A DNA stretch of 43,607 nucleotides from a bacterium. GTDB lineage: Bacteria; Zhuqueibacterota; Zhuqueibacteria; Zhuqueibacterales; Zhuqueibacteraceae. The stretch covers positions 1 through 43,607 of the forward strand of contig JBIOXB010000041.1 in NCBI GenBank assembly GCA_044869275.1. The letters are read 5' to 3'. The translations under genes and the position numbers were made by a program. The notes beneath the pieces were generated by a model. That model saw only the letters and a list, made by a program, of their open reading frames with translations, searched no databases and was not told where the DNA came from. Shown piece by piece: positions 4,189 through 10,500 of this stretch (its first letter is position 1; the number at the start of each line of letters is the position of its first letter).

Positions 4189-4297
4189 TTTGTGCGTTCA
4201 GTTTTTTCTCTTACTTTTGCTCCTACTCCTAATGCGAATGACCAGTTAAAATATGTCAAAGCCTAAAGCTATCAGTCAAAATGATTTGAGTCAAAAT

Positions 4298-4326
4298 GTA
4301 GAGACGTCCCGCCGGGACGTCTCTAC
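4298..4326. repeat. GTAG-type REP palindrome
   Basis: gtagagacgtcccg-c-cgggacgtctctac, perfect 14-bp arms. Confidence 0.8.
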
Positions 4327-4345
4327 GGCATACTCACATCAAAAT

Positions 4346-4677
4346 TTAGAAAGTGGAGAATGCGTCTTCTAAATTGAGCGCCAGTACAACCTTTTCACTG
4401 ACTTTCTTCATAGTATCATCGTCGAGCGTGCCGAGATATTTATCAAGCCGCTGTTTCGGGATGGTTTGAATATTATCGAGCTGCACGAAAGAGGGTGTGG
4501 GCAAATTCGTGTTTTGATCGATATCCACTTCGGTGGGATAGCCTTGTTTTGGGAGGTGATTTCAGCCACAGTAAGCTTGTTAAGGTAGGGAATGACTGCG
4601 CTTCGCGTCAGAATCACGATTGGACGCTTCCCCGCCTTTGCGCCCAAATCCGCCTGCCAGATTTCACCCCGTTTCAT
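4346..4677 (-). pseudogene. PemK/MazF-family toxin with a 1-bp frameshift near 4542 (pseudogene or sequencing error)
   Basis: MKRGEIWQADLGAKAGKRPIVILT...ITSQNK in one frame continues as (G)YPTEVDIDQ...SFVQLDNIQTIPKQRLDKYLGTL in another; adding one G restores a 110-aa ORF. Confidence 0.85.
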
Positions 4678-4907
4678 GCCGCGGTCCAGGCTTGCGTCTC
4701 CAGCCATTCCTCGGCGCGGTTGGCTTCATCTGGATTTTTCTTGAGAACCGCAATCCATTCCTGTTCGAAACGTGTTCCCTCGCGGCGTTTGAGCCAGGCC
4801 GCAAGCGCTTCGCGAACGATCTGGGCAATATCTTGTCCGGCCGATTTGCCGGCTTGGCGGATTTCCGTCAGCATTTGCTCGTCAATGGCAATTTGAATGT
4901 TCGTCAT
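4674..4907 (-). CDS. Ribbon-helix-helix (CopG-like) antitoxin
   Basis: 77 aa, MTNIQIAIDEQML...IVREALAAWL pattern; its TGA overlaps the toxin ATG (ATGA). Confidence 0.75.
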   Translation of the reverse strand: MTNIQIAIDEQMLTEIRQAGKSAGQDIAQIVREALAAWLKRREGTRFEQEWIAVLKKNPDEANRAEEWLETQAWTAA

Positions 4908-5331
4908 GGCGTGTTCAGAAAATGTTTGGCGTGTGATGTGTTTGAAGCCGATTTAGCAATTCTACAAGAGATGAAGCACATTTGCAAGCCAGATTTTTGC
5001 TTTTGAGGAAAAGATACGCATCGTCCTGACTTGAAAACTCAATTTAAGGTTCGCAATGCCTTGCTTAATTCCTCCACCTCCGGTTTGCGCCGGCCGTAGC
5101 CCATCCGTCAAATCCACGCGATCCGCGTTCAACAGAACAGAATGAACCGAGTATAAGCATCGACACTTGAAAAATCAATTGGCGTTTACATGCGGTTAGG
5201 GCAAGCAAACAGTGCCCGCGGCCAAAGTCGGCCCTTGCACTTTGGCATTTTTTTGAGTTTTTTGAATCCGTTTTGTTAAAAAACGAAATTCCACATGTCT
5301 GTATTACAAAGTTGCACGAAAGGAGCATGAA

Positions 5332-5868
5332 ATGATGCACCGCCTCAAATCAATTCTCACTGTTTTTGCTTTGCTGGGCTTGGCGACGGTTGCTCTCGCG
5401 CAAGAAGATTTGGCCGAGCCGCTCAAAGCCTTCAAGCCGTTTCTCGGCAAAACATGGAAAGGCCAACTCAATCAATCCGGCGAGGGCAAGGCTACCATTG
5501 ACATATCGCGCTGGGAACGCGCGCTCAACGGCCAGGCGATTCGCGTGCTGCACTCGGTCAACGACGGCGAATACGGCGGCGAGAGTATCATGTTTTGGGA
5601 CAAGCAGAAGAACAGTCTGGCGTTTTATTACTTCACCACGGCGGGGTTCTACACGCACGGCACGATGAAATTTGAAGAGGGCAAATTCATCAGCCACGAA
5701 CACGTCACCGGCAATGCCGAGGGTGTCACCGAAGTCAAAGGCAGCGGTGAGGTGACGGCGGACGGCAAGATGATCAGCAAATCACAATACTTCAAGGCCG
5801 GCAAATGGGTGGAGGGGCACGCCGCGGTTTACGTGGAAGACCCCACGGCGCAGGTGGTGTTTAAATGA
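5332..5868 (+). CDS. Secreted hypothetical beta-rich protein
   Basis: AGGAG RBS, signal peptide ending ALA, FKPFLGKTWKG and beta-strand-rich body. Confidence 0.7.
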   Translation: MMHRLKSILTVFALLGLATVALAQEDLAEPLKAFKPFLGKTWKGQLNQSGEGKATIDISRWERALNGQAIRVLHSVNDGEYGGESIMFWDKQKNSLAFYYFTTAGFYTHGTMKFEEGKFISHEHVTGNAEGVTEVKGSGEVTADGKMISKSQYFKAGKWVEGHAAVYVEDPTAQVVFK

Positions 5869-5880
5869 TTCAGCGTTCGT

Positions 5881-5935
5881 CGTAACGCCTTCAGGCGCCT
5901 GGCGCTCATCGCTCAAAATGCCTGAAGGCATTACG
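5881..5935. repeat. REP-like inverted repeat between convergent genes (possible bidirectional terminator)
   Basis: cgtaacgccttcaggcg ... tgcctgaaggcattacg; the right arm contains the stop codon of the minus-strand gene. Confidence 0.7.
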
Positions 5936-6776
5936 CCGAACAAATGACCTCATTTTCGGTAACGATGAAATCCACGCGCTGGTCGTGCGCGGTCTTGGGA
6001 ACGCGTTCCACAACTTGTGTGGCGAAGGCCAAACCGATCTTCGGCATGCGGGATTCGGCGAGAAAACGATCGTAATAGCCCGCACCATAGCCGAGGCGAT
6101 GGCCTTCCCGGTCGAACGCCAATCCCGGAATGAGCACGAGATCAAAAGCATTTTTTTCCGCCACTTTTCTTGCGCCCTTCTCCTCGCTGGGTTCCAAAAT
6201 CCCGTAGGCGCCAGCCTCGAGCGCTGAAAAATCATCTATAAAATAATGCACAAGCGTGCGCGCGGCGCGTTGTACTTTGGGCACAGCCACGCGGCGGCCG
6301 GCCTGCAAAGCTTCACTGATCACTGCGTGCGTGTCGACCTCATCTTGCCAGGAGACGTAGGTGTGAATGGTGCGCGCGCGCTGATAAGCTTCGAGCGCTG
6401 TAAGATTTTGTTTGATCATCGCACTGGCGCGTGCCCGCTCCGCCGGAGGCACTGCACGCCGCTGCTGGCGCATTTGTGCGCGCAGAGTTTTTTTCAGCAT
6501 GCCCTGCGCCAAATTCTGATCCGTTACCGCCATCACGCCCACTTCTTTGCGGCCCCAGTATTCTCCCCACTCCGTTTTCGTTCCGAGGCAAATGCGCGGC
6601 ACGCCGGCATATTTTTCCGTCCAATGTTTCTGTGTTGAATTGGAAAAATCCTCGGCCAGAATCAAGAGCGCAGCTCGGCGTCTCGCCAGGGCCTCTTGCG
6701 CCGCCTCGCTGCCGAGCGCAATTTTGCGCGCCCGCCGCGCGAGGCCAATGAGGTTTGTCAATTCTTCAGGCAACAT
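5931..6776 (-). CDS. Fusion protein: N-terminal L7Ae/YlxQ-like RNA-binding domain plus C-terminal 5-formyltetrahydrofolate cyclo-ligase (YgfA-like)
   Basis: aa ~1-92: LIGLARRARKIALG...LLILAEDFS...GVMAVTDQNLA; from aa ~93: KKTLRAQMRQQR...EVDT...DLVLIPGLAFDREGHRLGYGAGYYDRFL...HDQRVDFIVTE. Confidence 0.85.
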   Translation of the reverse strand: MLPEELTNLIGLARRARKIALGSEAAQEALARRRAALLILAEDFSNSTQKHWTEKYAGVPRICLGTKTEWGEYWGRKEVGVMAVTDQNLAQGMLKKTLRAQMRQQRRAVPPAERARASAMIKQNLTALEAYQRARTIHTYVSWQDEVDTHAVISEALQAGRRVAVPKVQRAARTLVHYFIDDFSALEAGAYGILEPSEEKGARKVAEKNAFDLVLIPGLAFDREGHRLGYGAGYYDRFLAESRMPKIGLAFATQVVERVPKTAHDQRVDFIVTENEVICSA

Positions 6777-7056
6777 GTTTCTGAATATAATCCACGACCT
6801 TCACATAATCTTCTGCAGAAACCGGCGCGCGCAAACCGTGCTGCAAAGCCTTTTTCTTGACCAAGAGCTGCGCGCACGCAGAAGCCGGGCAAACATACGC
6901 GCCGCGGCCGGGCAAACGTTGTTGCACGTCTATCGTCACTCGCCCGTCTTGATGGCGGCACAGACGCAACAATTCCGCTTTCGCGGTTTTGCGGCCGCAC
7001 GCCAGGCAGGTGCGCTGCGGAACATGGCGCGGTTTGATTGTTGGCAATGAATTCAT
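6766..7056 (-). CDS. ylxR: YlxR/RnpM (DUF448) RNA-binding protein
   Basis: HVPQRTCLACG...KAELLR...PGRGAYVC motifs; overlaps the downstream gene by 11 nt. Confidence 0.9.
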   Translation of the reverse strand: MNSLPTIKPRHVPQRTCLACGRKTAKAELLRLCRHQDGRVTIDVQQRLPGRGAYVCPASACAQLLVKKKALQHGLRAPVSAEDYVKVVDYIQKHVA

Positions 7057-7226
7057 GCAAACGTTTTATTAAAATACGGTCGGGGTCATGCAAAGTCAAG
7101 CTGAAAGCTGGAGGAAGCATAAAATTTCCAATTGCAAATCAAATCAGAGCATGGTAAGTTGCATCCAAATGTTTTAACGCAGAGACACAAAGCTTCACAG
7201 CGCGGCTGAGCTGCAACCAAAATGGT

Positions 7227-7293
7227 TCCACGCGGATCAAAAAACCACACGGAAATTTCTGGACTATCCGCGTGGTTTCTTAATCCGCCTGGA
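7227..7293. repeat. Degenerate inverted repeat of the cgcggat family
   Basis: tccacgcggat...ccacacgga ... tccgcgtgg...atccgcctgga. Confidence 0.55.
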
Positions 7294-7338
7294 GCTAGTG
7301 TTTGCTTTTTTGCAAGGATCTCACTTATAGCTGATTAA

Positions 7339-7473
7339 GAGCCTATCCCAAAACCTCATTATGTCATGCTGGAAGCATCTTGGTAGATTCAGTATCAGCC
7401 TTGGAAACATGTATTGTGCTGGATTCAACCAAGATCCCTACGGGATGACATATTAGGTTTTTGGGATTGGCTC
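7339..7473. mobile_element. MITE-like element (135 bp) with ~18-bp terminal inverted repeats and an internal REP-like pair
   Basis: gagcctatcccaaaacct / aggtttttgggattggctc; TAA on both sides (7336-7338, 7474-7476); internal tgtcat...atcttggt ... accaagat...atgaca. Confidence 0.7.
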
Positions 7474-7543
7474 TAAGCCAGAAACCCTGCTAAAAAAGCT
7501 AAGTTTTGCAGGTTTGTATTACAGAGAGCCACAGAGAAAAACG

Positions 7544-10500
7544 ATGTCCGTGCTTTCCTCATTTCACCCCGCCGTGGCGCAATGGTTCACGGAAAACTTC
7601 AAGCACCCCAGCCCGCCGCAAGCAAAGGGCTGGCCGGTTATCGCTTCCGGCCAGCATACGCTCATTCTCGCGCCCACTGGTTCCGGCAAAACCCTCGCGG
7701 CTTTTTTGTGGTGTATCGATGATTTGTTTCGCCGCGGCTTGGAAACGGACGAAAAGAATTTCAGCCGCAACCGTGAAGGCGTGCACACGCTTTACGTCTC
7801 GCCGCTGAAAGCGCTGAATAACGACATTCATCGCAATCTGCAGGAGCCGCTGCACGGCATTCGCGCCACGGCGCAGGCCTCGGGGTTGCATCCGCCGCCG
7901 ATTCATGCCACGGTGCGCACCGGCGATACGCCCGCCAACGTGCGCCAGAGCATGCTGCGCAAGCCACCGCATATTTTGATCACCACGCCGGAATCGCTTT
8001 TTCTCCTGCTCACTTCGCCGCAGGGCCGCGAGATGTTCCGCCAGTTGCGTTATTTGATCATCGACGAAATTCACGCCGTGAGCAACAACAAACGCGGCGT
8101 GCATCTCAGCTTGTCTTGCGAAAGATTGATGGCGTTGTGCGCTAAAGAACCGGTGCGCATCGGGCTTTCCGCCACGCAAAAACCGCTGGAGCGCATTGCC
8201 GCGTTTCTAGGTGGCCAGACAATTTCGCCGGAAGGGATTCCCGCGCCGCGTCCCGTGACCATTGTCGATTGCGGCCAGCGCAAGGAAATGGATTTGCTGA
8301 TTCTTGCTCCAACAGAAGATTTCGGCGATCTGCCGGAGGCGAGCATCTGGCCGAAGGTGATCGACAAGCTTTACGCATTGATTGCCGGCCATCGCACGAC
8401 CCTGGCCTTCGTCAACATGCGCGCACAAACCGAGCGTGTTGCACGTCTGTTAAATGAAAAACACCGTGAGCGCACCGGCGACCAGGAAGCGGTGCTGGCG
8501 TTGGCGCATCACGGCAGTATCTCACGCGAGGCGCGTTATGACATCGAAGCGCGCCTGAAGCGCGGCGAGATTCCCGCGGTGATCGCGACTTCTGCTTTGG
8601 AATTGGGCATAGATATTGGGAGCATCGATCTTGTGGTGCAGCTGGAATCGCCCAAAAGCGTGTCCGCGGCATTGCAGCGCGTGGGCCGCAGCGGCCACGT
8701 GCTCTCCGCCACCAGCAAAGGCCGCCTCATTCCGCTGTACCCCAACGATCTCGACGACGCCGTTTGCCTCGTGCGCAACATGCTGCACGGCGACATTGAA
8801 GAGACTTACGTTCCGGAAAACTGCCTCGATGTGCTGTCGCAACAGATTGTCGCCGAGGTGGCGATGCGCGAATGGCCGCGCCTGGATTTGTTCCATCTGG
8901 TGCGCCAAAGCTATTGTTATCGCCATCTCACCCCGGCGGTTTTCAACAACGTCCTAGAAATGCTCTCCGGCCGTTACGCCTCCGCGCCCATGCGCGCGCT
9001 GCAGCCGCGCATTTCATGGGATAGAGTGAACGACAAGCTCATCGCGCTGCGCAGTGCGCGCTTATTGGCGGTGATGAGCGGCGGCACCATTCCCGATCGC
9101 GGCTACTACAGCGTCTATCTCGCAGACAGCAACGCCAAGCTCGGCGAGATGGAGGAAGAGTTCGTCTTCGAATCGCGCGTGGGGCACGTGTTCTTTCTCG
9201 GCAACAACGAGTGGCGCATCGATCAAATCCTGCACGATCGCATCATCGTATCGCCCGTGCGCGCGGTCAAGCCGCGGCCGCCCTTTTGGAAAGGCGATTC
9301 GCTGTATCGCGATTACGACACCAGCCTGCGCGTCGCCGCGTTTCGGCGGGAGTTGTTGGAGAAGATCGACCGGCGCGAGGCCGAGAGCTGGCTGCAGCAA
9401 GATTGCCGTGCCGATGCGGACATCGCCAGAAATTTGCAGGAATATTTGCTGCGCCAGCATGGGCACACCGGCGCGCTGCCCACGGATCGCCAGTTTATTC
9501 TCGAATCTTTTTATGATAGTGCGCATGAACCGCACGTGGTGTTGCACACCTGCTGCGGCGGCCGCGTGAACGGCGCGTGGGCCCTGGCCTTGGCAACCGC
9601 GATGGAGCGGCGCCATCACGCCGAGGTGCAGTATTCTTTCAATGACGATGGCATCGTCATGCGCCTGCTCGACGCCGGCCAAACCGCGTTGCTGCTGGAA
9701 TTGCTCAAACTGCCCGGCGCGGAAATCGAACAGCTGCTGCTCGAAGCTCTGGCCGATTCGCCTTTGTTTGCGACGCGCTTTCGTTACAACGCTGCCTCGG
9801 CGCTGCTTTTGCCGCGCTCGCGCAATGGCAAACGCATTCCGTTGTGGCTGCAACGCCTGCGCGCCGCCGATCTTTTGCAGGTGGTGCGGCGGTTCCCGGA
9901 TTTCCCCGTGTTGCTGGAAACCTATCGCGATTGCGTGCAGGATGTTTTTGATTTGCACGGCCTGCTCCGCATGCTGCAAAAATTGCAAACTGGCGAGATT
10001 CAGATTCATAACGTCGAGACGCCCTTTCCCTCGCCCATGGCCTCGGGTTTGATGTTCAATTTTCTCGCCAGCAATTTGTACGGCGACGATCGCGCGCGCT
10101 ATCCCGGCCACGTTGCCGAGGTCAGCAGCGAGTTGCTGGCCGACATCTTGGCGCGCGAGCATATTCCGGCCATTGTGACCGCCGAGCTGGCCGCCGAAGC
10201 CGAGGCGCGCTGGCAGCACCTCGCCGTGGAAAGACAAGCGCGCGACTCAGAAGAGCTGTTCGCGGTGATTGAAAAACTCGGGCCGCTTTCAGAGGAAGAT
10301 TTGCGCCTGCGTGCGAAGGAAGACTTTTCCGCCTGGCTGCAGCAGTTGCGCGCGGCCGATCGCGTTGTGCTCTTGTCGGGAAAGTGGCGGGGGTGGGTGG
10401 CGCGCACCGAAGTTGACTTGTTCGAAAATCATCTCCATGAAAAAAACTCGCGCGCATTGCTGCTGCGCTACATGGCCGCGCGCGGCCCGGTGACAGCGGC

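Follow-up and report, generated by a model that had tools for sequence, protein, structure and literature searches.

A bacterial ylxR gene is followed, at the locus described here, by a 281-residue open reading frame (positions 5931–6776, reverse strand) in which an L7Ae/YlxQ-like domain and a complete YgfA-type 5-formyltetrahydrofolate (5-formyl-THF) cyclo-ligase are encoded in a single stop-free frame. The fusion is real and recurrent, it joins two known families, and it is apparently undescribed. We consider it likely that it reflects the repeated fusion of tightly packed operon neighbours by stop-codon loss, rather than a new machine. Unless a contig or locus is named, positions refer to the window, meaning the whole 43,607-nucleotide stretch of DNA that was analysed. 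The features of the operon are as follows.

7071..7099 (-): candidate promoter of sigma-70 type, TTGACT-17-TATTTT, immediately upstream of ylxR (9/12 matches)
6766..7056 (-): ylxR (RnpM-like), 96 residues, with a GRGAY motif and two cysteine pairs; the operon's first gene (PF04296, NF047356; single copy)
6495..6776 (-): YlxQ (L7Ae-family) half, approximately residues 1–94 (PF01248 at residues 6–88, 3v7q match, alignments)
6489..6500 (-): fusion junction M-L-K-K, with a predicted unbroken helix at residues 87–107 (AlphaFold2 model; DNA alignment with G001)
5931..6494 (-): YgfA / 5-formyltetrahydrofolate cyclo-ligase half, residues 95–281, complete (PF01812, TIGR02727, 25 conserved positions, 2jcb fold)
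5875..5941 (.): inverted repeat with 22-nt arms (91%), between the end of the fusion and a convergent 178-residue gene

The sequence-only reading of this DNA had proposed that roughly the first 92 residues of the frame are L7Ae/YlxQ-like and run, with no intervening stop, into a complete YgfA-type domain, and Pfam scans bore out both assignments: PF01248 matches residues 6–88 with 27.5 bits (cut-off 22.1), and PF01812 matches residues 95–274 with 164.7 bits across its entire profile (1–186 of 186). The frame scores 175.9 bits against TIGR02727 (curated cut-off 84.9) and 47 bits against NF005825, the NCBIfam YlxQ equivalog, which is below the cut-off of 113. The solved structure closest to the N-terminal half in a sequence search is B. 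subtilis YlxQ (3v7q, E 1.1e-8), which is also among the L7Ae-fold matches to that half in a fold comparison; a profile of 30 YlxQ relatives matches 3on1 and 3v7q at E ~1e-20. The YgfA half resembles B. anthracis 2jcb in fold (Foldseek E 1.5e-17, rmsd 1.9) and retains K95/R99, E146 and the motif PG.AFD..G.RLG.G.GYYD, with 25 conserved positions that recur in no fewer than 90% of the 41 linked sequences and 80% of the 79 from the outgroup. These positions presumably have ATP- and folate-binding roles. Two further conserved histidines, H138 and H177, are specific to the clade. In its full-length domain, its score, its fold and its motifs this half is like other YgfA/MTHFS proteins (TIGR02727), from which it differs by its N-terminal L7Ae domain and by lying behind neither 6S RNA nor zapA. 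Annotation pipelines name such fusions plain cyclo-ligases, overlooking the L7Ae half.

The ylxR frame overlaps the fusion frame by 11 nt, in agreement with the earlier reading, and its product matches PF04296 with 81.2 bits (cut-off 26.9) and NF047356 with 77.7 bits, marginally below the cut-off of 80. The operon is flanked by lhr, which is divergent, and by the convergent 178-residue gene, for whose product no Pfam match was found; the inverted repeat between that gene and the fusion is a possible terminator or repeat element. Promoter-type sites are not above chance here (2 found, against 1.2 ± 1.1 in shuffled sequences), and the candidate upstream of ylxR, if real, would leave a leader of ~10 nt, too short for a riboswitch. 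Repeat-like palindromic elements, with a 60-nt inverted repeat, occupy 7194–7300 and 7331–7481 in the interval between ylxR and lhr, and many contigs stack at 7194–7300.

The gene order differs from that of better-known relatives. In B. subtilis, the operon is described as rimP-nusA-ylxR(rnpM)-ylxQ(rplGA)-infB in the part of PMC10853771 consulted, and a zapA-6S-ygfA synteny is described in the corresponding part of PMC9788540. As in the B. subtilis rnpM-rplGA operon, ylxR here overlaps and directly precedes ylxQ, and both families are recognised; unlike there, the two genes lie apart from nusA-infB throughout the phylum as sampled, with ygfA behind or fused to the pair in some families. In this genome, which is 94% complete, ylxR, ylxQ and ygfA each have one match, all at the fusion locus. 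The question of whether the nusA-infB and 6S loci lack ylxQ and ygfA could be answered affirmatively: nusA is followed by infB on contig C77 across a 109-nt spacer that holds neither ylxR nor ylxQ, and a 6S-like RNA (E 4e-49) lies on another contig, away from ygfA and zapA.

G000:C90:3228-3414 (-): 6S-like RNA, detected with a profile based on sub-threshold Rfam matches in relatives

That profile was built from 4 of the 14 sub-threshold family matches; scans of this genome (G000) with RF00013 and RF01685 gave no match, and RF01685 matched none of the controls. The 6S-like RNA is seen at sub-threshold scores in 14 of 19 genomes of the family (loci L206–L209). On contig C109, zapA and rny are adjacent with no ygfA between them. 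A long hairpin (-77.6 kcal/mol, z -4.8) occupies the zapA-rny spacer at L203:1316-1475 (-) and has no Rfam match at gathering level. RNase P RNA of Type A is present in the genome (212 bits).

We surveyed 145 genomes of the phylum with a completeness of at least 80%; two unpublished genomes, G001 and G014, are included in the tallies and trees. ylxR was found in 108 of the 145, and ygfA in 35, 32 of them from five families of one class. A separate ygfA lies directly behind ylxQ in 27 of these 35 genomes; two (G000 and G021) have the YlxQ-YgfA fusion, one (G094) a YlxR-YgfA fusion, and five have ygfA elsewhere, two of those on contigs of ~2 kb. In 23 of the 27 unfused cases the ylxQ stop is at most 60 nt from the first conserved YgfA codon, and G001, from the same genus as our genome, has the same genes on either side of two separate frames. 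Every link of the cassette breaks somewhere: ylxR is on another contig in all five genomes of genus g3, where the ylxQ-ygfA link is retained, ygfA is away from the cassette in G004 and G007, and ylxQ was not found in G094.

Neither nusA nor infB was found near ylxR or ylxQ at 67 loci from 66 genomes or at 20 further loci, the only two matches in these 87 being weak GTPase matches at lepA; separation from nusA-infB is widespread in the phylum as sampled, regardless of ygfA. Neither ylxR nor ylxQ was seen near any of 86 ygfA loci from other collections, 79 of which had 450 nt or more of upstream sequence, as judged with profiles built from this phylum that may miss distant YlxQ; this suggests that the link is class-specific and old within the class. 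Contig scans of genomes and metagenomes returned distant single-domain YgfA loci only, and the ESM Atlas only YgfA clusters under 0.9. A region search with residues 1–105 of fusion P0121 matched only itself, so that index is insensitive to the YlxQ half and says nothing on fusions in other phyla.

The same two-domain architecture, which the earlier reading had suggested seeking in related genomes, recurs there and has arisen more than once. Seven further fused clusters (P0002–P0008) align over 96–100% of their length at 48–73% identity, and both domains were recognised by Pfam at E <= 0.001 in six of them; in the seventh, P0008, the N-terminus is cut short, and both are present in P0264, a member of the same cluster. 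A larger library search added the fusion P0121, the fragment P0136, and the cluster members P0264 and P0265; the protein search covered 1.84 billion sequences, with the best 150 matches listed. It had also been considered that relatives might encode two separate proteins and that the fusion might be unique to this assembly. Most relatives do encode two (27 of the 30 genomes with cassette-linked ygfA), and the supposed uniqueness is contradicted.

In quick trees, a single fusion clade of 10 rows was rejected with both halves (p-AU 6.6e-8 for YgfA and 2.1e-7 for YlxQ). Eleven fused rows require five changes on the YlxQ tree, at least three of them forced by strong branches. A single origin for the six fusions of genus g1 was not rejected (p-AU 0.65 and 0.69), nor was a common origin of G021 and P0121 on YgfA (p-AU 0.42), and we therefore count at least three lineages, rather than five, in which the fusion appears from these trees to have originated independently. 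The spacer from the conserved Asp of YlxQ to the first conserved Lys of YgfA is 8 residues in P0001–P0005, 20–22 in P0006–P0008 and P0264, and 33–34 in P0265 and P0121. In the unpublished genome G001, ylxQ ends L-K-K-M-K-stop and the ygfA domain starts L-K-K-S-L-R; aligned with that DNA, the window has a gap of ~110 nt between the two L-K-K stretches. We infer that an in-frame deletion at this micro-homology produced the fusion here.

Five AlphaFold2 models of the fusion, from 9 sequences, range in pLDDT from 51.7 to 87.7; the best (pTM 0.79) has one helix at residues 87–107. The long-linker fusion P0121 gives a pTM of 0.60, about that expected from its larger domain alone, and its linker is disordered. 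As the zero-linker form is modelled as one rigid helix and the long-linker form as unpacked, rigidity seems to come from the merged helix rather than from an interface between the domains, in models that rest on shallow alignments. The zero-linker form is retained in five clusters at 66–73% identity. Among the five closest fusions the YlxQ half is 73–80% identical and the YgfA half 64–72%, and the dN/dS of YlxQ against unpublished G001 is ~0.18; these alignments show both halves to be maintained under purifying selection.

The best reading of the YgfA half is that of an ordinary folate-salvage enzyme, as predicted from its conserved positions. According to the portion of PMC3223725 consulted, formiminotransferase can replace YgfA in the disposal of 5-formyl-THF. 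That enzyme was found in 122 of the 145 genomes. Those without a match number 12 among the 35 genomes with ygfA and 11 among the 110 others (3 misses come from family tallies), and the Fisher p of 0.002 for this pattern is overstated because related genomes are not independent. In family f5, YgfA is present in 14 of 18 genomes and formiminotransferase in 6 of 18. The partly complementary distribution fits a working salvage enzyme. Both G000 and G021 keep the fusion despite having formiminotransferase.

From these results we propose the following course of events. The locus is a small and presumably co-transcribed ylxR-ylxQ-ygfA operon of one bacterial class, with ylxR-ylxQ outside nusA-infB throughout the sampled phylum. 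In several families ygfA came to be placed directly behind ylxQ, probably with translational coupling, and in at least three lineages an in-frame loss of a stop codon or spacer would then have created YlxQ-YgfA. At this locus, a deletion of ~110 nt between the two L-K-K-coding stretches may have run the final helix of YlxQ into the first one of YgfA. Each half most likely retains its own function: YgfA would convert 5-formyl-THF, an inhibitory by-product of serine hydroxymethyltransferase, to 5,10-methenyl-THF at the expense of ATP, and the YlxQ half would stay an RNA-binding accessory. The fusion would fix expression at 1:1 and be tolerated, perhaps neutrally, with no new pathway needed.

Several points count against such a passive origin. 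At least three YlxQ-YgfA fusions and one YlxR-YgfA fusion form a pattern that often marks functional partners; in addition, the ylxQ-ygfA link survives the move of ylxR to another place in g3, that link is specific to the class and old within it as judged from the 86 outside loci, the fusion is kept beside formiminotransferase, the zero-linker form persists in five clusters and is modelled as one rigid helix, and the YgfA halves are more basic in fusions (median net charge +5.5 when fused, +2 when adjacent and 0 in 12 others, a comparison confounded by kinship). The earlier reading had suggested that this may be an undescribed module tethering a folate-salvage enzyme to a structured RNA or ribonucleoprotein. 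The architecture did prove real, recurrent and absent from the literature searched; a dedicated tether found no support. In its general form, this idea is that YgfA is anchored by YlxQ, alone or together with YlxR, to the ribosome, RNase P or some other structured RNA. There the enzyme might clear inhibitory 5-formyl-THF or supply methenyl- or 10-formyl-THF for the formylation of initiator tRNA, or its activity might be switched when RNA is bound. We regard it as unlikely. Fusions have converged on either RNA-binding protein, the YlxQ half is the better kept of the two, YgfA carries the clade-specific H138 and H177, and RNase P RNA is present in the genome, YlxR being reported to bind that RNA in B. 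subtilis and Synechocystis in the portions of PMC10853771 and PMC11622646 consulted. Against this, the genes are mostly unfused and separable, most genomes of the phylum have ylxR without ygfA, the cassette also joins unrelated downstream genes, including DNA-repair genes, and the long-linker fusion shows no fixed packing between its domains. An Rfam scan of window positions 4200–8000 gave nine matches, all below gathering scores, and no Rfam RNA was matched in 20 operon loci. No SAM-I riboswitch was seen in G000 among 150 of 483 candidates scored, and TrmFO, a tRNA enzyme that uses folate, was present in 0 of 108 genomes of the class, on which ground co-distribution with it was rejected.

A related and rather doubtful proposition is that YgfA was recruited as a partner of YlxR/YlxQ, in a ribonucleoprotein where 5-formyl-THF is removed or sensed, and that the old operon link and the four or more convergent fusions to YlxQ or YlxR reflect this. 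If true, it would connect the control of folate damage with the maturation of tRNA or the initiation of translation and give a first functional handle on YlxQ, a protein without an established cellular target, making the fusion a bacterial analogue of the RNA-binding MTHFSD. That eukaryotic protein joins an MTHFS-like domain to an RRM and forms a paralogous subfamily for which, to our knowledge, no cyclo-ligase activity has been shown. The likeness is that of a cyclo-ligase-like protein called RNA-binding (in the section of PMC8935057 consulted); the RNA-binding domain differs, and the two are likened by description only. For the ylxQ disruptant of B. subtilis, no effect was found in the assays described in the part of PMC6200986 consulted.

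It is quite improbable that the YlxQ half instead binds its own operon's mRNA and makes the dosage of ygfA depend on how much YlxQ is free, perhaps under feedback from folate. The YlxQ/L7Ae family is reportedly the subject of a 2012 study by Baird on k-turn RNA binding. Archaeal L7Ae, as described in an excerpt of PMC6298567, binds a k-turn in its own 5' leader, which offers a precedent, and the three genes form a tight operon. Opposed to this are the very short leader left by the candidate promoter, the lack of conservation of the DNA upstream of the operon with same-genus, unpublished G001, the absence of Rfam matches from the 20 loci, and the fact that k-turn-reading residues are not kept: N33, E34, K37 and R41 of archaeal L7Ae (given in the portion of PMC3884654 consulted) align to E24, A25, E28 and R32, with numbering transferred by motif. 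In the same alignment, three of the four are likewise absent from B. subtilis YlxQ, so the missing residues do not show that binding has been lost.

Two remaining explanations concern the junction itself. The earlier reading had noted an internal ATG at the domain boundary; its position (6500–6498) and the junction sequence are as that reading gave them, but Met93 is not the original start of ygfA. By alignment, Met93 is a YlxQ residue: in unfused relatives its place falls at G-[IM]-L within the C-terminal helix of YlxQ, and it is replaced by Ile in P0002–P0005, all four of the closest zero-linker fusions. The in-frame ATG could nevertheless suggest that separate products are still made, through internal initiation at Met93 or proteolysis, leaving the fusion nominal. 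This is very improbable given that replacement, the lack of a clear ribosome-binding site at the usual spacing, the lack of a stop of YlxQ's own, and a junction predicted to be ordered and helical. A misassembly, to which a 7-base homopolymer at the junction and a genome in 255 contigs might point, is of negligible probability and is refuted by the seven other fused clusters, of which P0002–P0005, from other sources, share the zero-linker junction, and by contigs of other runs that cross the junction without differences: an independent assembly of the same study's second run covers 6360–7095 with 0 differences, and a contig from a different study extends 32 and 49 letters to the two sides of codon 93, also with 0 differences. 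An RNA-library contig (6368–6518) was rejected as evidence of a joint transcript, since it passes codon 93 by 18 letters (31 needed) and has one difference.

The fusion of operon neighbours that we favour has parallels among the same genes. The YlxR-YgfA fusion of G094 (L065:2512-3378) is also present in another assembly (P0266) at 99%; that genome gave no formiminotransferase match. YlxR-YlxQ fusions occur in other classes of the phylum, and PRK09190 (NCBIfam YlxR-L7Ae, 227 positions) is likewise a fusion of neighbours in the same cassette, with the difference that both of its halves bind RNA, whereas the C-terminal partner here is an enzyme. YlxR, which has been called nucleoid-associated, is fused to HhH-GPD, an endonuclease III-like glycosylase, in all seven genomes with a long frame that were examined from the 13 of family f12, and Pfam confirmed this in each of the four sequences submitted.

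L183:109-1140, L186:2641-3699, L188:2298-3260, L189:2896-4095: YlxR-HhH-GPD loci, family f12

Most of that family is without ylxQ, and in G125 (L190) ylxR and the HhH-GPD gene are separate and adjacent. A YlxR-YlxQ-MutL frame of 793 residues (L071:2576-4957) in G065, whose relatives have ylxR-ylxQ apart from mutL-miaA, may be an error or the result of one lost stop codon. If the tether is false, the locus would be a cautionary case for Rosetta-stone inference, with the same cassette joined to a glycosylase and to MutL as well as to a folate enzyme. Fused, coupled and separated forms occur naturally in this lineage and can be compared.

We found no published description of the operon or the fusion in a search of article texts drawn largely from outside the subscription journals; in the part of PMC3814617 consulted, genes of this cassette appear only in separate tables. 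Other YgfA fusions (P0146, P0228, P0118, P0041 and P0260) include PurD, FolD, formyltransferase and BKACE domains; one has an N-terminus without a Pfam match, which we take to resemble TatB. Elsewhere in the window, at 4408–4907 (-), a ribbon-helix-helix gene is followed by another frame that presumably resembles MazF/PemK, and the two are a probable toxin-antitoxin pair.
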